32,000 bases of DNA from Fidelibacterota bacterium. GTDB lineage: Bacteria; Fidelibacterota; Marinisomatia; Marinisomatales; SCKK01. Position 1 is the first letter of the stretch, and each line of letters starts with the position of its first letter. Below the pieces are notes generated by a model. That model was given only the letters and a program-made list of their open reading frames with translations. It was not told the DNA's origin and made no database searches. Location of the stretch: assembly GCA_004124475.1 (NCBI GenBank), contig SCKK01000008.1, forward strand, positions 8,075 through 40,074. The letters are read 5' to 3'. A program made the position numbers and the translations under genes. Shown piece after piece: positions 15,013 through 25,264 of this stretch.

Positions 15013-15041
15013 TTGACATTTTCAATAGGTCACTTTACAAT
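15013..15041 (+). promoter_or_regulatory. sigma70-type promoter of the 7-gene operon
   Basis: TTGACA (15013-18), a 17-nt spacer, then TACAAT (15036-41), ending 51 nt upstream of the ATG at 15093. GAGGT RBS at 15084-15088. Confidence 0.55.
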
Positions 15042-15092: not shown

Positions 15093-16196
15093 ATGAGGCG
15101 ATCCGCCAAATTTATAGTTTTTATAGTCTTTTTAATCTTTGCTGTTTCCTTGCAGGCAAAGAAGTACACCATAAGTGGTGTTGTTCTTAATTCAGAGGAG
15201 AAAAAAGTTCCTTCTGCTGAAGTGATCCTTATCGATTCTGATGGGAACGAGGTAGCTAAAGATGCCACAGGTAAAAGGTTAACGGGAAAAGGAAAGTTTA
15301 AATTTAAGAAAATCTCTTCCGGTAATTATACTCTTGAAGTATTTAAGGAAGACGTTGGTACATACTCAGAGGCAGTAACGGTTCCAGATGATGATGTGAA
15401 AATTACCGTCACATTATCAAAGAAAAAGAGAAGAGAATTGGTGGAAGAACCTGTTGAAAGAATCCCTGATGATGAGTATGTGACGACCGAACTGAGTTTT
15501 GAGATCAAGAAACTGACTGCGGAGATCGGCTACCTGGGAAGCCAGCTCAGAGATCTGCAGGCAAAGAGTGAAATGTGGACAAATCCCCTGTCCATCTACA
15601 GTAAAGAGATTATTCTGGACAATGGAACCACTATTTTTGGCAAGGTTGTCTACCAGGATGAGGAGATGCTTAAAGTAGAAACGCTTCTTGGCTACCTGGT
15701 GTTAAATCGGGAGCAGATTGTGCGGATTATTGATAATGTAATGACAGCGGAAGAACCTGAATACATTCCGGAACAGATTCGAGAAACCTATAGCCCACCC
15801 CCCATGCCCAAGCTTGCAAAACCTCGCTATACATCGGCAGCTCCCACAGAGCGACTACCGGACGTCAGTCGTTCGGCAAATATAGTTCTTGTTGGCAATG
15901 TATCTGAGACAAAGGATAGATCAAACAATATAACTTTCTCAGGAGAAGTGAAGAACATTGGTGGTCGTAGATCAGATTTTGTGAAAATGAATTTTGTTTT
16001 TCGAAAGAATTGGAGTGGTGAGACAAAAACTATTACAACATTTATCCGTGGCGCTTACCATACATTCGACACGGGCATTACTACCGATTCTTCTTTATTA
16101 CCGGGAGCGACAGGCACCTTTGAAATGGTTATCCCAGCCGATTTCGGCACATTTATCGGCTATTCATATACCATCGATTGGGAAGAATACGAGTGA
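15093..16196 (+). CDS. secreted CarboxypepD_reg-like domain protein with coiled coil and C-terminal beta-sandwich
   Basis: Signal peptide (FIVFIVFLIFAVSLQA). There is a carboxypeptidase-regulatory-like beta-sandwich (YTISGVVLNSEEKKVPSAEVILIDSDGNEV...GNYTLEVF), a short coiled coil, an SH3-like beta segment, a Pro-rich linker and a C-terminal beta domain. Confidence 0.6.
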   Translation: MRRSAKFIVFIVFLIFAVSLQAKKYTISGVVLNSEEKKVPSAEVILIDSDGNEVAKDATGKRLTGKGKFKFKKISSGNYTLEVFKEDVGTYSEAVTVPDDDVKITVTLSKKKRRELVEEPVERIPDDEYVTTELSFEIKKLTAEIGYLGSQLRDLQAKSEMWTNPLSIYSKEIILDNGTTIFGKVVYQDEEMLKVETLLGYLVLNREQIVRIIDNVMTAEEPEYIPEQIRETYSPPPMPKLAKPRYTSAAPTERLPDVSRSANIVLVGNVSETKDRSNNITFSGEVKNIGGRRSDFVKMNFVFRKNWSGETKTITTFIRGAYHTFDTGITTDSSLLPGATGTFEMVIPADFGTFIGYSYTIDWEEYE

Positions 16197-17224
16197 AGAT
16201 TGGAACCGTAAAACAGAAACCGGTTTTTAGTTTACTCATACCGATTTTGTTTTTTTCAAACCTGCCAGCTCAGGAGTCTTTCACCGAAGACGCCTTTTTT
16301 CTTGACCTGGGTATCGTCATCGAGCTGGGCACAGGAAAAGAAGAAATCAATCGCCTCATAAAAGCGCCTTCAGAGCAGGTGAAGTTCTTTCTCGATAAAG
16401 AGCCCAGTGGCTCTGTGTTTATGGCTTCAACAAAGGAGCTTCAACTGACACTTGAACGGATCACAAAAAGAATGGAAAGCCTTGAGAGTTCTATATATTC
16501 TTTAGAGGGATTCTTTGAGAAAGAAGTGAACACACTAAAAAGCGAGAACAGCCACCTTAGAGAAATGATATCTGATTTACTGGCGCAAGAACCAGTGGTA
16601 CCACCGGCATTGGAGAAGTTGGTTGTCAGAATAGAAGAGGTGGTTTCAGATGTGGAACAGTTAAAAAATATATCCTCTGGTGAAACTAATATGTTGTTTG
16701 TCACTGGAATTGCACCTATTGAAAAACCGAAAGTTATTGAAACAGAAATGAGTAGTGAATACGTGAATAGACAATCATCTGGTATTAAGGATAAAACAGA
16801 AGATCTGGTAGAATCAGACCAGAACACTCGGGAAGAACAGAAAAGTTTTAGTAAGTTAACTTATATGGCGGCTGTATTCGCTTATCAGCGGGATGATTAT
16901 CAAAGTGCTTTAAGACAGTTTCGAAATTTATCGCTGATGGATACGGAAGACCTCACTGCAGGAAATGTACTTTACTGGATGGCGGATTGTTATTTTCAGC
17001 TTGGAGAATATGATGAAGCTCTGAGTACACTGGAGAGAATAAAGGAATTTTCAAAGTCCGACAGGCTTGATGATGCTTTGGTTTTGAGCGGCCTGTCATA
17101 TCGCCGTATGGGTAAAGAATCGCGAGCGGTCTCTGCATTTAGTGATGTGGTGAATAACTATCCGGAAAGTGAATATTACAGATTGGCTCAGATGGAGCTA
17201 AAAAAATCAGAGAAGCGACCATGA
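16193..17224 (+). CDS. CpoB/YbgF-like periplasmic protein (signal peptide, coiled coil, C-terminal TPR)
   Basis: The GTG at 16193 overlaps the upstream stop (GTGA). The coiled coil is LQLTLERITKRMESLESSIYSLEG...LKSENSHLREMI. The C-terminal TPR block closely follows the Tol-Pal YbgF pattern (YMAAVFAYQRDDYQSALRQF...NVLYWMADCYFQLGEYDEAL...DDALVLSGLSY...VVNNYPESEYYRLAQ). Confidence 0.65.
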   Translation: MKIGTVKQKPVFSLLIPILFFSNLPAQESFTEDAFFLDLGIVIELGTGKEEINRLIKAPSEQVKFFLDKEPSGSVFMASTKELQLTLERITKRMESLESSIYSLEGFFEKEVNTLKSENSHLREMISDLLAQEPVVPPALEKLVVRIEEVVSDVEQLKNISSGETNMLFVTGIAPIEKPKVIETEMSSEYVNRQSSGIKDKTEDLVESDQNTREEQKSFSKLTYMAAVFAYQRDDYQSALRQFRNLSLMDTEDLTAGNVLYWMADCYFQLGEYDEALSTLERIKEFSKSDRLDDALVLSGLSYRRMGKESRAVSAFSDVVNNYPESEYYRLAQMELKKSEKRP

Positions 17225-18588
17225 TTAATAAATACGGAAAAATTGTTCTTCTGGGATTGGCATTCGGGATGATGTTCCCACTTTTGGGGGTAACACGTGT
17301 GGCTAATATGTATCCAGGTTCAATGATAAAAATTCCAACCAGCAGCGCAGTCAGATCTCCATACCTTTTCAGCACCGGTTTTGCCACGGAAATTCATAGG
17401 TTTTCAGATCCTTTTAACACAGCTAGAGGCTTTTATTTTTCCATGGATTTGACCAACCGGTTTACTATGGGTTTTTCATCTGTACAGAGCGCTGATACCA
17501 CCGCTTTAGAAAATATTCTGACATCAACTCTCAGACCACCCATAGAGTTTGGTTTTCATATACAATATCGGGCATATGTTTATAATGACATTGCTTTCTC
17601 TGTGGGTATTCATGATATTGTTTTTAAAGATGACCCTACAAACGGTTTAAACTTAAATCCCAGGGATTTTTCTACTTTTCTGTCTATTGGCAGTGAGAAA
17701 ATTTTAGGGGAATATGGCCTTAGCACTTATATGGGTTTTGGCACAGGTGGTTTCAGTGCTCCGGATACTTCCTCTGTAGTAGTTGATACGGTTACAACAG
17801 GATCGAATTCAGGGATATTTGCTGGGTTTCTTCTTAAAACGCCATTCCTGCCCAAATGGGGCGGACTTGACTTTGTGGGTGAATTCGATGGTTCAGGCAT
17901 CAATGTGGGACTCCGCATCCCCCTTACCTCGGATTATCGCTTGACAGTAGGATTCACCCACTTAGAAAATTTACCTGCCTTTTCGGATGAACCTTATGGA
18001 CCTACTCACCCGGGGTTGATCATTGGTTTGGATATGTCGGTTCCGAGAGGGCCCAAAAGGGTTCCGGGTATACCCACTCCTGGTATTGTAAGGGGACCAT
18101 TACCCGCTCCTGAAATGGCGATGATGGATTCAGCCATGTTAGCAGCGGATTTCGCTGTGGCTGCACTCCGAGATTCAATCAGGATTAACCAGCTTGAGAT
18201 GAGAAATTTGATGACACAGGTAGCCAGTGTGCAGCATAAAGCATTTGTACTTGAAAATTCCGTGAAAGCCCTGAGTCTCGAAAAAGCCGTCGCACAGAGA
18301 AATATGAATCGTGCTATGCGCCATCTGTCAAGATCGCTCCGTTATTTTTATTCCGGAGACTATCGTGAGGCTCTGCAGGAGGTGGAGACTTCACTCGATC
18401 TGAATCCCAACCTGGCGCTTGCCTATGCCCGGAGAGGATCCATCTATTACAAGCTTGGAGATGTACAGCGGGCAACCATTAATTGGAATCTGGCATTGCA
18501 GATGGATCCGGAGTATGATGATGTGAGAAATATTTTAAAGGCGTTACATGAAAATCGCTTAAAAACAACCAGTTTTCGCAGGGAGTAA
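17221..18588 (+). CDS. secreted beta-rich domain / Pro-rich linker / coiled coil / TPR protein
   Basis: ATGA overlap with the upstream gene and a signal peptide. The N-terminal ~270 aa have alternating beta-strand-like segments (possible barrel). They are followed by PRGPKRVPGIPTPGIVRGPLPAPE, a coiled coil and C-terminal TPRs (FYSGDYREALQEVETSLDLNPNLALAYARRGSIYYKLGDVQRA...). Confidence 0.6.
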   Translation: MINKYGKIVLLGLAFGMMFPLLGVTRVANMYPGSMIKIPTSSAVRSPYLFSTGFATEIHRFSDPFNTARGFYFSMDLTNRFTMGFSSVQSADTTALENILTSTLRPPIEFGFHIQYRAYVYNDIAFSVGIHDIVFKDDPTNGLNLNPRDFSTFLSIGSEKILGEYGLSTYMGFGTGGFSAPDTSSVVVDTVTTGSNSGIFAGFLLKTPFLPKWGGLDFVGEFDGSGINVGLRIPLTSDYRLTVGFTHLENLPAFSDEPYGPTHPGLIIGLDMSVPRGPKRVPGIPTPGIVRGPLPAPEMAMMDSAMLAADFAVAALRDSIRINQLEMRNLMTQVASVQHKAFVLENSVKALSLEKAVAQRNMNRAMRHLSRSLRYFYSGDYREALQEVETSLDLNPNLALAYARRGSIYYKLGDVQRATINWNLALQMDPEYDDVRNILKALHENRLKTTSFRRE

Positions 18589-18597
18589 AGGAGAGAT

Positions 18598-19371
18598 ATG
18601 GATATTGCAACAATAATAGGAATTATCGTTGGTATTGGAGCCATTAGTGGTGGGATTATACTACTTACTCCGGATTTTGCCATGTTTGGCTCGATATCGA
18701 GTTTTGCTATTGTATTTGGAGGAATGATAGCCTCTGTCTCGGTTGCTTTCCCTTTAGCGGAAGTTCTAAAATTGGGTTCGGCAATGGGAGCTGTTTTTAA
18801 AGGCGGGGATCTGAAATTAGGTACTGTTGTAGATGATGTTGTAGAAGTTTCGGGTGTAGCTCGTAAAGGGGCTGTTGAGTTGGAGAAGTCAGTGAGTGAA
18901 ATTAAAAACCCATTTTTTAGGGATGGTGTACAAATGGTGGTTGATGGATACGGTGCAGATGAGATTATCGATATTCTCGAAACACGAATCTCATATCGTG
19001 AGGTAAGAGAACGATCTCAAGCGGGACTTTTCCAAACCATGGGTGTGATGGCACCAGCTTGGGGGATGATCGGGACACTCATTGGTTTGGTCGTCATGCT
19101 GTCAGGTTTTGGCGGTGGCGGCGGAGCGGATGCCCTCGGTTCCGGTATGTCTGCAGCCCTCATCACCACATTTTACGGAGCGGTCATGGCTAACCTGTTC
19201 TTTCTTCCTATGGCAGCCAAACTAAATTCAAGGCTTACACACACCAGTACATTACAGGCGATGATAGTGGAGGGAGCCCGCTTGATTCACCAGACGAAAC
19301 ATCCCCTGATTGTTCGTGAGAAATTAAACTCTTTTATTCCACCCAAGGAGTGGAAGAGAGAAGGGGAATAA
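18598..19371 (+). CDS. motA: flagellar-type stator protein MotA/PomA
   Basis: 257 aa with a 4-TM layout and a large cytoplasmic loop between TM2 and TM3. The conserved TM3/TM4 prolines are in MAPAWGMIGTLIGLV and ALITTFYGAVMANLFFLPMAAKL. AAGGAGA RBS. Confidence 0.85.
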   Translation: MDIATIIGIIVGIGAISGGIILLTPDFAMFGSISSFAIVFGGMIASVSVAFPLAEVLKLGSAMGAVFKGGDLKLGTVVDDVVEVSGVARKGAVELEKSVSEIKNPFFRDGVQMVVDGYGADEIIDILETRISYREVRERSQAGLFQTMGVMAPAWGMIGTLIGLVVMLSGFGGGGGADALGSGMSAALITTFYGAVMANLFFLPMAAKLNSRLTHTSTLQAMIVEGARLIHQTKHPLIVREKLNSFIPPKEWKREGE

Positions 19372-19374
19372 TCT

Positions 19375-20148
19375 TTGGCTAAAAAGCCGACACCTCCTCC
19401 CCCGGAAGTAGGTCTTCCAGGATGGTTCGCTACCTTTGCGGATATGATGACACTTCTTTTTGCGTTCTTTGTCCTGTTAGCTGCAATTTCTACTGTAGAT
19501 CCGGTGAAGTTACAACAGATGGCAGATTCCATGGGAAAATCGGTGGGAAAAAAATTGGAGATTGATAGCCAAGCTATGTCGCTCGGGGATATATACGAAG
19601 CATTGGAGGAAATGGTAGAGGAGATGGAACCAAGCCCCGAAACAGGAGAAAAACCCGTGGAAGTGAAGACGAGCACAAAAGGGGTAACTCTTGAGGTGTC
19701 ATCAGACATTAGTTTTGGTTCGGGGTCAGCGGAGCTGAAAGCGGCCATTCTTCCCACTCTAAAAAAATTAGTACCTTTTATTAACCGGTCTTATAATATG
19801 GTGGCAATCGAAGGACATACGGACAATGAACCGCTACCCGAAATATTTCATGATAAATTTCCCAGTAATTGGGAGTTATCCGGGGCAAGGGCTGCTGCTG
19901 TAGTCCGGGAATTTATAAGTTTGGGAGTAGATCCCACGAGGTTACAGTCGGTGGGTTATGCTGAATTTATTCCACGGGATGCGCCTACTGATCGCCTTAT
20001 CGACGAATCAATTATTCAAGAATTTAATTCCACACCTGGGAAAAAGGCGAAAAATAGGCGTGTGGGAATTACATTCCTTGCTACCAGTATAGACATACAA
20101 AAGAAAGAAGACTGGGATAAATCAAAAGAAGAATCCGGGAAAGAATAA
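19375..20148 (+). CDS. motB: stator protein MotB/PomB (OmpA-like peptidoglycan-binding C-terminus)
   Basis: The N-terminal motif PGWFATFADMMTLLFAFFVLL carries the channel Asp. The C-terminal OmpA-like block is VAIEGHTDNEPLP...FPSNWELSGARAAAVVREF...NRRVGITF. TTG start 3 nt after motA. Confidence 0.85.
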   Translation: MAKKPTPPPPEVGLPGWFATFADMMTLLFAFFVLLAAISTVDPVKLQQMADSMGKSVGKKLEIDSQAMSLGDIYEALEEMVEEMEPSPETGEKPVEVKTSTKGVTLEVSSDISFGSGSAELKAAILPTLKKLVPFINRSYNMVAIEGHTDNEPLPEIFHDKFPSNWELSGARAAAVVREFISLGVDPTRLQSVGYAEFIPRDAPTDRLIDESIIQEFNSTPGKKAKNRRVGITFLATSIDIQKKEDWDKSKEESGKE

Positions 20149-20170: not shown

Positions 20171-21730
20171 ATGAGAAAACATCTTATACTAACTATCGCT
20201 CTGGCTGTAGGATCTTTATTCACGCTTACTCAGTCACAGGAAACATCCTATTTAGCTCAGAAGCTGATGTTGGAAAATGATTTGCGCAGCCGTATCAATG
20301 GAGCATTGGAAAAAATCTTGGATGATCATCGATATGTTTTAGATGTATCCGTAGAATTATCTCTTACCCCCACGGTTAAGGAAGAAGTCACATTCAGACC
20401 AATCACAAAAAAAGGTGCTGAACGGGGTAGGAAAAAACTATACGGGGAAGAAACAGGGCCTTTATTGGAAGCAGGCAGGGATCGCAAATCTCGCCTGACT
20501 GGAATTCCCATTCCGGGGTTTGATTTTCAGATTGAAGAAGAACCTGAAGTACCTACGGAAAGACTTTCAGAAATAAAAGAAGAGGAAGGGATGGAACAAG
20601 CTTTCCCCTCGCAAGCTCAAATAATGACCCAATCTTATACTGATATCACAGCTTCAAGACCCATCATTGAAAAATTGGAGATCAGTTGTATCCTGCCTGA
20701 GGGTTCTGCCCCTGAACTTATTGAGAACGTCCGTCAAATTATTATGGTGGCTTCACACTTTAATCGGAGCAGAGGTGATATGTTAAGCATCATGACCGCT
20801 TCATTCAGGGAGAGAAGAGACCAGCGAACGGCTGAGTCCATCATCTTAAGAAGTATTGCCGAAAAAATTGATAAGCTTGAGAGAGAAAAAGAAACCGGTG
20901 TGAGTGAAGAAAAGGCAGAAGTAGACTGGCAGGAGGAATTTCTTCAGTGGAAGGAAGAAGAAACCCGCCGTCGGGAGGATGATCGTGCAATGTTTCTTGC
21001 AGAATTGAAGAAATTGGAAGATGAGCGAGTACTCCGCAATTTGGAACGTGAAAAGAAAACCATTCTAAAAAGGGATTCTCTCAAGACTGAAGAGATTAAG
21101 GTATTAAAAGAATTACTTGCATCAGCTCAGCTATCAAAGACGGAAACCGAGGCAGTCCAAGAAGAAGTGGCAGTAAAGGAAAAGGAGATCGCCGATCTGG
21201 ATACTCTCAGGAAAAAGATGGAAGAGTTTGAAGCAGCGATGCTTCAGGACACTGAAAGTTGGGTAAGAGAATCTCGAGGAGGAATAGGTAATCTACCCAT
21301 TTATCTCATGAGCGCAATTTCGTTATTAGCTGTGATGGCGTTGGCAGCGGTGATTATTTTCAACGGGCGGAAGCCGAAGTATGTTATGCCCCCACCGTGG
21401 GCTATGCCTCGTCCTCCCAGGAAAAAAAAAGTATCTAAGAAGCCTATAGAGGAGCAGGATGAGGCAAAACCCGGACCGTTTGCGCCTGCACCAGTAGCAA
21501 CAGCCCCCCTTGGTCAGGAACCATCAGCTGTTGCTGGAGATCCTGCGGTATTGCAGTCTGAAATCAAGTCTGTCCGCCAGTCTATCGTATCTATGAGTGT
21601 TGGGCAACCACAGACTGCCACATCAATTGTGAAAGAGTGGCTTCAGGAAGAAGCTCCTCCTCCGCCTGAAGAACCGGCTGCAGCCCCAGAGGCGCCGGAA
21701 GAAGAGGAAGGCAAAAAGAAGAAAAAGTAG
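20171..21730 (+). CDS. divergent FliF/YscJ-like membrane ring protein with coiled-coil insertion
   Basis: N-terminal hydrophobic segment. There is a ring-building-motif-like block LENDLRSRINGALEKILDDHRYVLDVSVELSL and a second block KLEISCILPEG...LIENVRQIIMVASHFNRSRGDMLSIMTASF, which follows the FliF pattern ...RLSVAV...AVGfd..RGD.l.V....F. These are followed by ~160 aa of E/K/R coiled coil and a second TM (LPIYLMSAISLLAVMALAAVIIF). The C-terminal helix TATSIVKEWLQEE resembles the FliG-binding tail of FliF. Confidence 0.5.
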   Translation: MRKHLILTIALAVGSLFTLTQSQETSYLAQKLMLENDLRSRINGALEKILDDHRYVLDVSVELSLTPTVKEEVTFRPITKKGAERGRKKLYGEETGPLLEAGRDRKSRLTGIPIPGFDFQIEEEPEVPTERLSEIKEEEGMEQAFPSQAQIMTQSYTDITASRPIIEKLEISCILPEGSAPELIENVRQIIMVASHFNRSRGDMLSIMTASFRERRDQRTAESIILRSIAEKIDKLEREKETGVSEEKAEVDWQEEFLQWKEEETRRREDDRAMFLAELKKLEDERVLRNLEREKKTILKRDSLKTEEIKVLKELLASAQLSKTETEAVQEEVAVKEKEIADLDTLRKKMEEFEAAMLQDTESWVRESRGGIGNLPIYLMSAISLLAVMALAAVIIFNGRKPKYVMPPPWAMPRPPRKKKVSKKPIEEQDEAKPGPFAPAPVATAPLGQEPSAVAGDPAVLQSEIKSVRQSIVSMSVGQPQTATSIVKEWLQEEAPPPPEEPAAAPEAPEEEEGKKKKK

Positions 21731-21739
21731 AGGCGTAGA

Positions 21740-22669
21740 ATGATTACAGATTATAATAGATTGTCAGGGTTGGATAAAGTAGCAATTCTTTTTTCTGTGT
21801 TAGGAGAAAGTTTAGCCATAACCCTGATTAAAGGTTTGCCAGAAACAGATGTTCGGAAGATTAGAGCACGAATTCGCGAAATGGGTACTGTTGTTTTTTC
21901 TGTTAAAAAGAAAGTAGTAGAAGAGTTCTATCTGGCATTAATTTCCAAGAAATTCCAGGATGACGGCAAAGGAGACACAAAACGTCCATTTGCTTTTCTG
22001 GATGAAATGGCAGATGAACAAATTATTGCTCTTTTAGAAATAGAGGAGCCCAGGATTGTTGCCATGACTTTAGCGCAGGTTTCTCCGGAGAGTCAAATGA
22101 AGGTAATAAACAAATTGGAACCTGATAAAAAAGGACGAGTCCTTATGGAAATGGGACGTCTTGACGATGTTTCATTGGAAGCTGTGGTGAATATCGCCTC
22201 AGAACTCGAAGAGAAGTCTCATTTTCTCCCCAGAGCTGTGGATTTTTCCAGGGGTGGTGGAAAGAGTATAGCCAAGATCTTAGGACAGATGAGTTCAGAT
22301 GAGGAAGAGAAGTATCTGGAAGCTATCAGTCGTGAATCACCCGAGCTGGCGGAAGAGGTGAAAAAATATCATTTAACCTTCGATAATATTTTGACATTCC
22401 CTGGGAATATTGTAAGGGATCTGATGAATTCTGTGGATTTGGATACAATTGCCATGGCTTTAAAGGGACAGTCGGAAGAAACGGTGAACGCGATACTCGA
22501 GAATCTCCCAAAAAAGAAACAGGCAATGTTTGAACCTATCGAGAGGGCAATTGCCAAGCGGGATGTGGATAAAGCCAAGAAGACCATTGTTGATGCAGCC
22601 CGCCAAATGGAAAAGGAGGGTCGTTTCAATCTTGAGGATATTTTAGGTGGCGGTGAAATGGTGGAATGA
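21740..22669 (+). CDS. fliG: FliG-like rotor protein (N, M and C domains recognisable)
   Basis: The N domain is LSGLDKVAILFSVLGESLAITLIKGLPETDVRKIRARI. The M domain is EQIIALLEIEEPRIVAMTLAQVSPESQMKVINKLEPDKKGRVLMEMGRL. The C domain is FDNILTFPGNIVRDLMNSVDLDTIAMALKGQSEETVNAILENLPKKKQAMFEPIE...RDVDKAKKTIVDAARQMEKEGR. Confidence 0.75.
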   Translation: MITDYNRLSGLDKVAILFSVLGESLAITLIKGLPETDVRKIRARIREMGTVVFSVKKKVVEEFYLALISKKFQDDGKGDTKRPFAFLDEMADEQIIALLEIEEPRIVAMTLAQVSPESQMKVINKLEPDKKGRVLMEMGRLDDVSLEAVVNIASELEEKSHFLPRAVDFSRGGGKSIAKILGQMSSDEEEKYLEAISRESPELAEEVKKYHLTFDNILTFPGNIVRDLMNSVDLDTIAMALKGQSEETVNAILENLPKKKQAMFEPIERAIAKRDVDKAKKTIVDAARQMEKEGRFNLEDILGGGEMVE

Positions 22670-23008: not shown

Positions 23009-23800
23009 ATGAAAAATACATTTGTTAGCTCACAGAGTTATGTCCATCCGAAGGATCCTGCGGACAGGACCTTTCGGATGGACAGGATCTTTATGATCTA
23101 TTTGGGTCTAATGTCAGCAAGTACGTTATTTGCTGGAAAGTGGGAATATTCCATTAATGGAGCATTAAAAACCCAAACCGGTAATACTGATGTGTCATCT
23201 TTTTCTGTTGCTCTGTCGAGTCAACATGAGGGTGATTTTACTATAGGTTCATGGACTCTAAAAGATGCGGAAATTAAGTTTTCCATTAGTCACAGTAGGG
23301 GGAAATTAAAAGATGTGTTGTATGAGAATGATGGAAACGCCAGTTTCCTATTGAATTACCATGCCAATCAAAAGTTTTCCCCATTTTTCCATTTCTATTT
23401 TGAGTTTGATTCAACAGCATCTCTTGAAAACAGGACACAGATGGGCTTTGGGGCTAAATATAGTATTACAAAACCGTTTTCAATCAGTATCCTAGGTCTG
23501 TGGGAATTGGAAGATTATGTGGGTGAAGATCAAGCAAGTCAATTACGGTGGTCAATCCGACCAAAATATAAAAAGAGTTTTAATTCGGGTGTATCAGTAA
23601 GCTACGTTGCTTTCTATAAACCGTTGCAACGTGATTTTAATAATTATCTTTTGGAACACTATGCGACAGTATCTTTAGCCACAAAAATATCCTGGTTAAG
23701 TGTTAATGTAACTTTGGAGGATAAATTCAACTCTCGACCACCTGCCGATACAAAGAAAAAAGACGTGGATGTAACCGTTGGCATAACCTTAACATTTTAA
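23009..23800 (+). CDS. DUF481-family outer-membrane beta-barrel protein
   Basis: The pattern after the signal peptide, KWEYSINGALKTQTGNTDVSS...(alternating strands)...GFGAKYSI...VTVGITLTF, matches DUF481/YdiY-type small OMPs. The ATG at 23009 has a GGAGA RBS, but codons 11-26 are a nested palindromic repeat. The start may instead be the ATG at 23078 (MDRIFMIYLGLMSASTLFA). Confidence 0.6.
   Translation: MKNTFVSSQSYVHPKDPADRTFRMDRIFMIYLGLMSASTLFAGKWEYSINGALKTQTGNTDVSSFSVALSSQHEGDFTIGSWTLKDAEIKFSISHSRGKLKDVLYENDGNASFLLNYHANQKFSPFFHFYFEFDSTASLENRTQMGFGAKYSITKPFSISILGLWELEDYVGEDQASQLRWSIRPKYKKSFNSGVSVSYVAFYKPLQRDFNNYLLEHYATVSLATKISWLSVNVTLEDKFNSRPPADTKKKDVDVTVGITLTF
23041..23084. repeat. 44-nt nested palindrome (compound hairpin element)
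   Basis: The outer arms are tgtccatccgaagg and cctttcggatggaca, and the inner hairpin is atcctg-cgga-caggac. It shares the 14-mer atccgaaggatcct with 14547-14560 and its architecture with 14719-14758. Confidence 0.7.
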
Positions 23801-23848: not shown

Positions 23849-25264
23849 ATGGAGAAGGAAATTCATCAGCTTAACAAAGCAGGGACCACATTCCGCACGA
23901 TTATTGAGCCGTTTAAAATCAAAACGGTAGAACCTCTCTGGATGACAACAGCGGAAGAGCGACAGAAGATTTTAAAGAATGTACACTACAACGTCTTTTT
24001 GATACAGGCTCAGGACGTCATCATCGATCTGCTCACAGACAGCGGCACCAGCGCTATGAGTTCGGAACAGTGGGCGGGCGTCATGCGTGGGGATGAAGCG
24101 TATGCCGGAAGTCGGAGTTATCAGAGATTTGAAGCCGTTGTCCATGAAATCTTTGGATTTAAGCATATCATCCCAACTCATCAGGGAAGAGCTGCGGAGA
24201 GAATCCTCTTTTCTGTGATGTGTAAAGAGGGAGACATCGTGCCAAACAACACCCATTTTGATACAACCCGGGCTAACGTGGAATTCCGGGGAGCCATAGC
24301 CGTAGACCTCCTCATCGATGAGGGGAAAGATACACAGAGCAAATACCCGTTTAAGGGAAACATGGATCTGGAAAAACTGAAAGCTCTTATCGATAAAGAA
24401 GGTGCCAAGAAAATCCCGCTATGTATGATTACCGTTACGAATAATTCCAGTGGTGGGCAGCCCGTGTCCATGACGAATATTAGGGCAGTTAAAAAGATTT
24501 TAGATGAGTATGGAGTTCCATTGTATTTAGATGCCTGTAGATTTGCAGAGAACGCTTATTTTATTAAACTTCGGGAAGATGGATATGAGAAAAAGTCTGT
24601 GGAAGAAATTGTTAAGGAAATGATGGGTTATGCTGATGGGTGCACCATGAGCGCCAAGAAAGATGGATTGACGAACATCGGCGGGTTTCTCTGCACAAAT
24701 GATGACATTCTTGCCCAACAGGAGCGGGATCTATTGATCATTTCTGAGGGATTCCCAACCTATGGAGGATTAGCCGGCAGAGATCTGGAAGCTATTGCCA
24801 TTGGACTGAAGGAAGTGCTTCACGAGGATTATCTGCTCTACCGGCTTGCTGAGACGCAGTACCTTGGTGAGCATCTGGATGAGATTGGATTCCCCATAGT
24901 TCAGCCGCCGGGAGGCCACGCTATTTACATCGATGCCAAAACCATGCTGCCGCATATTCCAGCAAGCCAGTATCCGGGACAGGCGTTGGTGGTTGAATTA
25001 TATCAGGTTGGAGGCATTCGTGCAGTTGAGATCGGATCGATTATGTTTGGGAAGGTAGATGAGGATACGGGGGAGGAAATTCCTGCAGAAATGGAGCTGG
25101 TCAGGTTGGCAATCCCGAGAAGGGTTTACACTCAAAGTCATATCGATTATGTAATTGAAGCCTGCAAGCGCGTTTGGGAAAATCGAGATGCGCTCAGGGG
25201 ATATAAAATTGTGGAGCAGGCAAAATTCCTGAGGCACTTTACAGCGAAGTTTGAGCCGGTTTAA
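23849..25264 (+). CDS. tnaA: tryptophanase (beta-eliminating lyase family; tyrosine phenol-lyase not excluded)
   Basis: 471 aa, colinear with TnaA/TPL. Conserved blocks are EPFKIKTVEP, DLLTDSGTSAMS, RGDEAYAGSRSY, IIPTHQGRAAE, TNNSSGGQPVS, the PLP-lysine motif SAKKDG, EGFPTYGGLAGRD, PHIPASQYPGQAL...GIRAVEIGS and LRHFTAKFEPV. Confidence 0.85.
   Translation: MEKEIHQLNKAGTTFRTIIEPFKIKTVEPLWMTTAEERQKILKNVHYNVFLIQAQDVIIDLLTDSGTSAMSSEQWAGVMRGDEAYAGSRSYQRFEAVVHEIFGFKHIIPTHQGRAAERILFSVMCKEGDIVPNNTHFDTTRANVEFRGAIAVDLLIDEGKDTQSKYPFKGNMDLEKLKALIDKEGAKKIPLCMITVTNNSSGGQPVSMTNIRAVKKILDEYGVPLYLDACRFAENAYFIKLREDGYEKKSVEEIVKEMMGYADGCTMSAKKDGLTNIGGFLCTNDDILAQQERDLLIISEGFPTYGGLAGRDLEAIAIGLKEVLHEDYLLYRLAETQYLGEHLDEIGFPIVQPPGGHAIYIDAKTMLPHIPASQYPGQALVVELYQVGGIRAVEIGSIMFGKVDEDTGEEIPAEMELVRLAIPRRVYTQSHIDYVIEACKRVWENRDALRGYKIVEQAKFLRHFTAKFEPV

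Follow-up and report, generated by a model that had tools for sequence, protein, structure and literature searches.

What is a relative of the flagellar ring protein FliF doing in an operon with stator genes and a putative outer-membrane barrel, in a genome without a match to flagellin? The question is raised by a gene at 20171..21730 of a 32,000-nucleotide stretch of DNA, hereafter the window, from a Fidelibacterota bacterium (assembly GCA_004124475.1, contig SCKK01000008.1, positions 8,075 to 40,074 of the forward strand). Our analysis revealed that its product, hereafter the FliF-like protein, is a divergent FliF paralogue that retains only the third ring-building motif (RBM3), or S-ring domain, and that its probable role is to form the rotor in an envelope machine, driven by ions, that is so far undescribed. 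The gene, whose ATG is preceded by AAGGAG, is laid out as follows.

20171..21730, + strand: FliF-like open reading frame (ORF), intact in the ORF list, with an ATG start and 519 amino acids (aa) plus stop
20171..20236, + strand: residues 1-22, a probable cleavable signal peptide in place of the first transmembrane (TM) helix of FliF, from the (-3,-1) pattern of homologues
20237..20413, + strand: residues 23-81, first half of RBM3 (helix, two strands), from AlphaFold, hhalign and PDB profile alignments to FliF ~227-324
20414..20611, + strand: residues 82-147, variable insertion at the FliF beta-collar position, with low predicted local distance difference test (pLDDT) values and high entropy
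20507-20527, + strand: invariant PIPGFxF motif inside the collar-position insertion, from an alignment of 66 sequences
20612..20815, + strand: residues 148-215, second half of RBM3, ending in SRGDMLSIMTASF, from PF08345 and Foldseek
20816..21280, + strand: residues 216-370, charged helical spacer (stalk) from the ring domain to the membrane, from AlphaFold helices and composition
21293..21364, + strand: residues 375-398, single TM helix (hydropathy peak 376-398; AlphaFold helix 375-398)
21365..21538, + strand: residues 399-456, cytoplasmic Pro/Lys-rich linker with low pLDDT and conserved P407-P409, W410 and K419
21539..21655, + strand: residues 457-495, a pair of helices bearing a FliG-binding motif of the FliF type (GQPxTATxIVKEWL), from AlphaFold and the PDB profile
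21656..21727, + strand: residues 496-519, Pro/Glu-rich segment with a poly-Lys end, from family conservation

The RBM3 domain and the missing RBM1 and RBM2

Homology of the periplasmic domain to FliF RBM3 is shown by agreeing evidence from profiles, a structure model and fold comparison. The Pfam profile PF08345 (YscJ_FliF_C, the RBM3 region) matched residues 46-212 over its whole length, at 21.9 bits against a cut-off of 23.8 bits, and was matched by all 66 aligned homologues, with a best E-value of 4.2e-13. In the AlphaFold monomer model built on the family alignment (mean pLDDT 69.9), the elements run helix, strand, strand, disordered insertion 82-147, strand, strand, helix, strand, with the first two strands at 56-66 and 69-75; the same order is seen in RBM3, here interrupted by an insertion at the place of the FliF beta-collar. 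When the model was compared with the PDB by Foldseek, FliF MS-ring/RBM3 structures, among them 8z5v, 8z4g, 8z4d, 8zds, 8t8p, 6scn, 6sd3 and 7cg7, took the top 18 places (E=6.7e-7 to 1.1e-4, probability 1.00, target TM-score up to 0.62), and the match at rank 19 dropped to E=0.06. The family profile found FliF in the PDB by sequence as well: the best match, 8z5s_AA (E=1.2e-4), comprised two co-linear stretches, with profile columns 37-218 on FliF 270-454 (RBM3) and 468-495 on 552-579 (the extreme C-terminus), and 12dr_A (E=7.7e-4) aligned columns 33-111 with FliF 245-324. A search of the PDB with the single sequence returned a spurious CagD match alone (E=0.7), and NCBIfam holds no model for the FliF-like protein.

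A sequence-only reading of this locus had picked out three short islands of FliF resemblance and proposed a FliF-family ring protein, and both proposals hold up, the structural comparison having now been made; all the strings that it quoted are present. Both hhalign and the 12dr_A profile match place the first island, LENDLRSRINGALEKILDDHRYVLDVSVELSL, on the helix and strand that open FliF RBM3. The second, KLEISCILPEG...SRGDMLSIMTASF, corresponds to the end of PF08345, and canonical FliFs of the phylum read DRGDQVEVxNLxF at the site of its final block. In the same reading the protein was called compact, which is misleading because canonical FliFs of the phylum span 534-543 aa; the part that is reduced is the ring-building part. 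It was also called YscJ-like, which names the wrong half of FliF, because the region homologous to SctJ/YscJ, RBM1-RBM2 (PF01514), is the very part that is missing.

Indeed, PF01514 gave no match in the FliF-like protein, in 10 variant homologues or in the whole genome, and only ~22 residues stand before RBM3. Hydropathy and composition trace a short N-terminal hydrophobic segment and a mixed region at 30-215. Among homologues, the N-terminal uncharged run has a median of 17 aa, the residue preceding the invariant Gln23 is G, A, S or C in 110 of 114 sequences, and position -3 is small or aliphatic. By this pattern the N-terminal segment is probably a cleavable signal peptide rather than TM1, and the two-TM layout of FliF is not found: the only clear TM helix is that at 376-398, after which comes a Pro-rich, strongly basic stretch (PPPW...RKKK). 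The mature protein would thus be single-pass, with its N-terminus outside, its C-terminus inside and cleavage predicted from the homologue pattern. We also considered and rejected membership of the SctJ/YscJ family, including PrgK and EscJ: the signal region holds no lipobox Cys, PF01514 does not match, and no SctJ structure stands among the Foldseek matches listed.

The insertion at the collar position is the most variable part of the protein (entropy 2.57, the highest), and yet P113, I114, P115, G116, F117 and F119 are invariant among the 66 sequences. The family profile gathered 342 matches at E<=1e-3 among 1.84 billion cluster representatives, a number so small that the profile is not drawing in canonical FliF at large; judged in this way, the FliF-like proteins are a distinct, narrow family.

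Set against known FliF structures (6SD1, 6SCN, 7CG7, 8T8P, 8Z5V, 8Z4D; Salmonella, Vibrio), the FliF-like protein shares an RBM3 fold that carries an insertion where the collar would be, the closing RGD-x-[LV]-x-[IV]...F block of that domain, a TM helix that follows the periplasmic part, a P-x-x-A-x-x-[IV][VI][KR]-x-W helix at the C-terminus, and a gene position beside fliG and near motAB. Unlike FliF, it lacks RBM1 and RBM2, probably has a signal peptide in place of TM1, places ~135 more helical residues between RBM3 and the membrane helix, and has its own PIPGFxF insertion and a Pro/Glu/poly-Lys extension.

Helical spacer and cytoplasmic tail

Between the end of RBM3 and the membrane lies a feature that the sequence-only reading had described as a charged coiled-coil insertion foreign to canonical FliF. 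Its charged, helical nature, the lack of a counterpart in canonical FliF and its conservation in the family are borne out: residues 216-370 consist of 45% D/E/K/R, and AlphaFold places helices at 221-317 and 323-369 with pLDDT ~85-95, which, if straight, would be some 14 nm and 7 nm long. In 151 homologues, a median of 169 aa (range 127-309) separates the RGD block from the TM helix; in five canonical FliFs of the phylum the two lie 31-33 aa apart. The coiled-coil part of the description fared less well, as heptad a/d scores barely differed from those of shuffled sequences (z=0.27) and the hydrophobicity spectrum of the family, which peaks at 3.45-3.55, remained below the 95% shuffle level, both being crude tests; with no significant heptad periodicity, a coiled coil stays hypothetical. 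The E-to-K(i+4) signature of single alpha-helices is also absent (10 pairs versus 8.9 expected), and Pfam, at E up to 5, offered nothing credible for either the helical spacer or the cytoplasmic tail.

The length of the spacer varies. In one group of long-spacer homologues, proteins of 591, 616, 635 and 668 aa contain a unit of 33 or 44 aa (LSSELSSLRNQLQEQE...), both lengths being multiples of 11, repeated in tandem 3, 3, 4 and 5 times. Growth by whole units at one place argues for an extended, length-tunable stalk; a compact domain, or a hairpin with strict pairing, would fit it less well. The group comprises homologues P0050, P0054, P0056, P0057 and P0059, among which close relatives differ by whole units; long frames of 568-624 aa also occur in all six sampled genomes of f4, a family of the phylum (G047, G134, G166, G176, G182 and G192). 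A search for internal repeats in the spacer of the window copy did not rise above shuffles.

The suggestion that the insertion is periplasmic agrees with the predicted topology, in which an exported RBM3 lies upstream and the TM helix 376-398, with its basic stretch, follows; by these signals the spacer is periplasmic. The further idea that it replaces the rod does not fit, because it lies between the ring domain and the membrane anchor and would not project beyond the ring. Placed there, it would serve as a stalk that raises the ring above the inner membrane.

The last 104 aa form a cytoplasmic tail that terminates in APPPPEEPAAAPEAPEEEEGKKKKK. Within it, entropy reaches its minimum for the protein (0.91) in the FliG-binding-type segment with its two predicted helices (458-476 and 480-494). 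When a tail profile of 42 columns (EDPxVLQSEIxxxRQSVVSMSVGQPxTATxIVKEWLxEE) was compared with the PDB, the best match was the C-terminus of Vibrio FliF, and the third island of the sequence-only reading, TATSIVKEWLQEE, is upheld by this match together with the second co-linear stretch of the full-length profile. Canonical FliFs of the phylum terminate in ENPEGAAxLIRSW, which, taken with the tail profile, yields the common pattern P-x-x-A-x-x-[IL][IV][KR]-x-W. The similarity to the FliF C-terminus is therefore one of motif, and it suggests that the tail would bind the N-domain of FliG. The Pro/Glu/Lys ending noted from the sequence is genuine and conserved: the Pro/Glu segment is family-wide, and a run of at least 4 Lys ends 117 of 167 homologues, an extension that canonical FliF lacks.

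A conserved cassette apart from flagella

Seven genes are tightly packed here, overlapping by 19 and 4 bp or separated by 3-22 bp, and the FliF-like gene is the sixth of them. The other six genes and the best promoter-like site are listed below.

15013..15041, + strand: best promoter-like site, TTGACA-17-TACAAT, 52 bp before gene A (11/12 consensus matches; a consensus match only)
15093-16196, + strand: gene A, secreted, with a CarboxypepD_reg domain and a conserved C-terminal part (Pfam, NCBIfam)
16178-17224, + strand: gene B, with a coiled segment and YbgF/CpoB-like tetratricopeptide repeats (TPR) (Pfam, NCBIfam)
17221-18588, + strand: gene C, predicted outer-membrane barrel with a long helix and TPR (structure model, Foldseek)
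18598-19371, + strand: MotA, stator subunit (MotA_ExbB)
19375-20148, + strand: MotB, stator subunit with plug (MotB_plug, OmpA)
21740-22669, + strand: FliG paralogue of 309 aa, presumed partner of the FliF-like tail (FliG_N, FliG_M and FliG_C all above Pfam cut-offs)

The order of these genes is strongly conserved. In a sample of 19 loci across the phylum, genes A and C, MotA, MotB, the FliF-like gene and FliG occurred in the same order in every locus, and gene B was found in 17 of them. Gene B was not detected in L023 (G095) and L026 (G047), and gave two separate matches in L029-L034 and L036; its copy number is thus variable, unlike that of the other six genes. The best NCBIfam matches of MotA and MotB are the MotP/PomA/MotA and MotD/MotB/MotS models, all below equivalog cut-offs, and MotB retains the TM aspartate motif FADMMTLL. 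Two further genes of the MotA/ExbB/TolQ family lie elsewhere in the window genome, and the cassette FliG is its only FliG_C match. Cassette FliGs (21740-22669 of the window and those of L024, L025, L027 and L035) have ~26 residues fewer between the N and M domains than canonical FliGs of the same genomes, and read E(E/Q)PR where the canonical proteins read EHPQ(T/R).

The sequence-only reading placed outer-membrane partners upstream, which is plausible for protein C. Its model (pLDDT 70) combines ~14 strands at 48-275, a Pro-rich linker, a 75-aa helix and TPR repeats, and the barrel, of the 12-strand type, gave Foldseek matches, from E=2.6e-6, to FapF, a designed 12-strand barrel, NanC, a COG4313 channel and one chain of 6h3i, the structure of a type IX secretion translocon. 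Protein C, whose annotation mentions the TPR alone, has a predicted signal peptide and is very conserved, with a mean column identity of 67% in 44 sequences. Gene B matched TIGR02795 at E=8.2e-14, below the cut-off. For the barrel of protein C and the C-terminal portion of protein A, Pfam returned nothing credible at E up to 5, and a PDB sequence search with protein A found nothing useful.

The cassette is independent of flagella. Unlike the usual setting of FliF, the window genome (3.15 Mb, 95% complete) gave no match to FlhA, PF01514, flagellin or FliM/N, with FliPQR and rod genes not searched separately. Among 201 genomes of the phylum, the FliF-like family was present in 131 and FlhA was above its cut-off in 48; on cross-tabulation, 31 genomes had both the cassette and FlhA, 100 had the cassette but no FlhA match, and 17 had FlhA without the cassette. 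Many of the 100 cassette genomes without an FlhA match are >95% complete, and the single-contig genome G029 (2,788,509 bp) holds a full cassette with a 517-aa FliF-like gene of the same architecture and no FlhA match. At that locus (L030; G029:C1:125500-145000), proteins A and B carry lipobox-like signals. With FlhA in 48 of the 201 genomes, part of the Fidelibacterota appears flagellated, and the phylum is not uniformly non-flagellated; Fidelibacter multiformis IA91, the only species of the phylum in culture, is non-motile, with a complete genome of 2.79 Mbp (PMC11652737).

In five flagellated relatives (G177, G189, G131, G154 and G004), canonical fliF (534-543 aa by first ATG) adjoins a canonical fliG scoring 129-146 bits, and a second fliG scoring 61-93 bits stands beside the FliF-like gene elsewhere, the cassette lying on other contigs or >500 kb from fliF/fliG. 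This coexistence with the canonical pair marks the cassette as a paralogous system, neither a relic nor simply a flagellar part.

In all, the FliF-like protein has >1,500 homologues, and the named ones, together with 80 genomic loci, come from metagenome-assembled and single-amplified genomes of Marinimicrobia/Neomarinimicrobiota/Fidelibacterota, apart from one record labelled Caldithrix abyssi. Against a 94%-identical homologue (L039), the ratio of non-synonymous to synonymous substitution rates (dN/dS) was 0.36, from 27 non-synonymous and 21 synonymous changes, too few to compare regions. Our literature search found no description of the family, and a 2025 classification of flagellar versus generic stators by Puente-Lelievre et al. 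mentions neither FliF nor this phylum (PMC12505986).

Proposed machine, rival explanations and neighbouring genes

With moderate confidence, we propose that the FliF paralogue retains two functions of FliF, ring building and FliG attachment, within an envelope machine of ring, FliG and MotAB that is coupled to the outer membrane. Upon cleavage of the signal peptide, the N-terminus would be periplasmic and the C-terminus cytoplasmic. RBM3 domains with their collar-position insertions would pack with neighbouring copies into an S-ring-like periplasmic ring, linked to the single TM helix by a charged helical stalk of ~155 aa and variable length, while the FliF-type helix of the cytoplasmic tail would bind the N-domain of the adjacent FliG paralogue. 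MotA and MotB, anchored to peptidoglycan, would push FliG so that the FliG/FliF-like assembly turns, and the stalk would transmit this motion to a ring well above the inner membrane, where the ring could contact the secreted proteins A and B and the barrel/TPR protein C. Such a ring would have no export gate inside, consistent with the loss of RBM1-RBM2. The fullest version of this proposal, a free-standing S-ring on a cage of long helices, turned by MotAB through FliG and passing torque to the outer-membrane barrel/TPR complex independently of flagella and of export, we put forward only tentatively.

Several observations weigh against the proposal. The hhalign link between the family and the five canonical FliFs of the phylum is poor (residues 25-67 on 227-269, 43 columns, E=0.0023, a probability of only 12.7%), and because of this weak match the sequence link to FliF rests on Pfam, the PDB profiles and the fold. 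The match of the tail by itself, to residues 556-578 of the 580 of Vibrio FliF, is likewise weak (E=0.45). The sequence of the insertion is unlike the FliF beta-collar, and it is disordered in the monomer model, with pLDDT <50. The ring itself, which in FliF has about 33-34 subunits, is proposed from a prediction of the monomer, and some rings that contain RBM domains, SctJ/SctD and SpoIIIAG/AH among them, do not rotate. The modelled helices 221-317 and 323-369 may extend or may fold back as a hairpin. In most lineages the torque helix of the cassette FliG is 4 residues shorter and the EHPQR motif is altered, so that contact with the stator may differ; in favour of the proposal, the deep-branching cassette FliG of G004 has a near-canonical torque helix (RTRIILEDEMK). 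Finally, about one third of the sampled genomes of the phylum are without the family, including 13/13 of one genus with ~1-Mb genomes, which indicates that it is dispensable. All 13 genomes of that genus have neither FlhA nor the cassette.

These points leave room for a machine that does not rotate. A small or static complex of the FliF-like protein and FliG might let MotAB pull on the envelope through the long helix, in the manner of TolA or TonB, without a full ring or continuous rotation. The YbgF/CpoB-like TPR protein and the outer-membrane barrel with its periplasmic TPR would suit such a force transducer, as would the altered torque helix of FliG and a ring that is so far a prediction, and the long charged periplasmic helix recalls domain II of TolA. 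The periplasmic domain, however, matches the ring-building RBM3 of FliF specifically and not TolA or TonB, and the C-terminal TM anchor with its cytoplasmic FliG-binding-type tail is the reverse of the TolA/TonB topology. Moreover, FliG retains all three domains, and the two other MotA/ExbB/TolQ-family genes could serve Tol or Ton functions. We therefore regard force transduction without rotation as unlikely, albeit the most serious competitor of the rotary proposal.

Far less probable is an accessory or alternative flagellar part, such as a second MS-ring/rotor set whose presence in non-flagellated organisms reflects incomplete assemblies. The co-occurrence of FlhA in 31 of the 131 cassette genomes speaks for it, but the remaining 100 lack an FlhA match although many are nearly complete, G029 does so on a single contig, and four independent flagellar markers are absent from the window genome; in flagellated relatives the cassette stands apart from fliF/fliG, and its neighbours are always the same non-flagellar envelope genes. 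That the cassette is what decay has left of a lost flagellum, without a function today, is scarcely credible and already contradicted by the conservation data. The window genome is non-flagellated, and a survey of flagellar genes treats partial sets mainly as remnants (PMC12199754), both of which would suit a relic; nonetheless, the ORFs are intact, the genes tightly coupled, the six core genes constant in order, and RBM3 and the tail strongly conserved. The cassette also coexists with a complete canonical pair in flagellated relatives and has innovations of its own, namely the signal peptide, the stalk, the PIPGF motif and the poly-Lys tail. We accordingly rejected the flagellar relic on the grounds of conserved operon order, conserved domains and coexistence with the canonical pair.

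The rotary proposal finds partial parallels in known systems. GldLM of the gliding/type IX motor and TolQRA likewise join an inner-membrane ion motor to a long periplasm-spanning element that energizes outer-membrane partners, and their stators act directly on GldM or TolA inside their own ring. Here, unlike in those systems, a flagellar-type MotAB (plug, OmpA) is paired with FliG and an RBM3 ring protein. SpoIIIAG, compared by description (PMC4768692), is similarly membrane-anchored, has an RBM3-type domain with an insertion as its sole globular part, and forms a large ring without RBM1 or RBM2; unlike the FliF-like protein, it has an N-terminal anchor and lacks a long helical spacer, a FliG-binding tail and a stator. 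It was not among the top 50 Foldseek matches. FliF is usually described as an invariant three-RBM protein, and the Chlamydia FliF-FliG fusion is the sole exception reported by Bergeron in 2016 and the only published one that we found (PMC4768692). This fusion of the Chlamydiaceae is likewise a reduced FliF paralogue tied to FliG in organisms without flagella, but it keeps RBM2 and lacks RBM3 (the SpoIIIAG-like motif), the opposite of the FliF-like protein; FliG is a separate gene here and fused there, and the partners are MotAB and envelope proteins here and the injectisome and FlhA there (PMC4768692).

The FliF-like protein is a new FliF variant and marks what is probably a new kind of envelope machine derived from the flagellum. 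In it the part of FliF that carries torque is set apart from the part tied to secretion, as the S-ring and the FliG tail are kept and the export-gate parts are lost. Its conservation with FliG and a stator in mostly non-flagellated genomes makes it testable, as an old question, whether a rotor-stator core can function, and could have arisen, without a type III secretion core. The cassette thereby gives concrete content to the remark in the survey that rotor proteins of non-motile species "could have an alternative function" (PMC12199754), and, in the abundant deep-ocean group SAR406/Marinimicrobia, represents a major envelope system that is still uncharacterised. If the rotary proposal is true, a FliF(RBM3)-FliG-MotAB torque module would work without the type III export core, which bears on the origin of the flagellar motor, and a rotary envelope machine would be common in one of the most abundant bacterial phyla of the ocean.

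Downstream of fliG, a gene for a DUF481 outer-membrane protein (23009-23800) was considered as a member of the operon and rejected, since it begins 339 bp past fliG and stands beside the cassette in 0 of the 19 loci. Beyond it lies a gene for a tryptophanase-like beta-eliminating lyase (23849-25264), which also follows FliG in four same-order relatives (L023-L026); its proximity to the cassette is probably a matter of local synteny.

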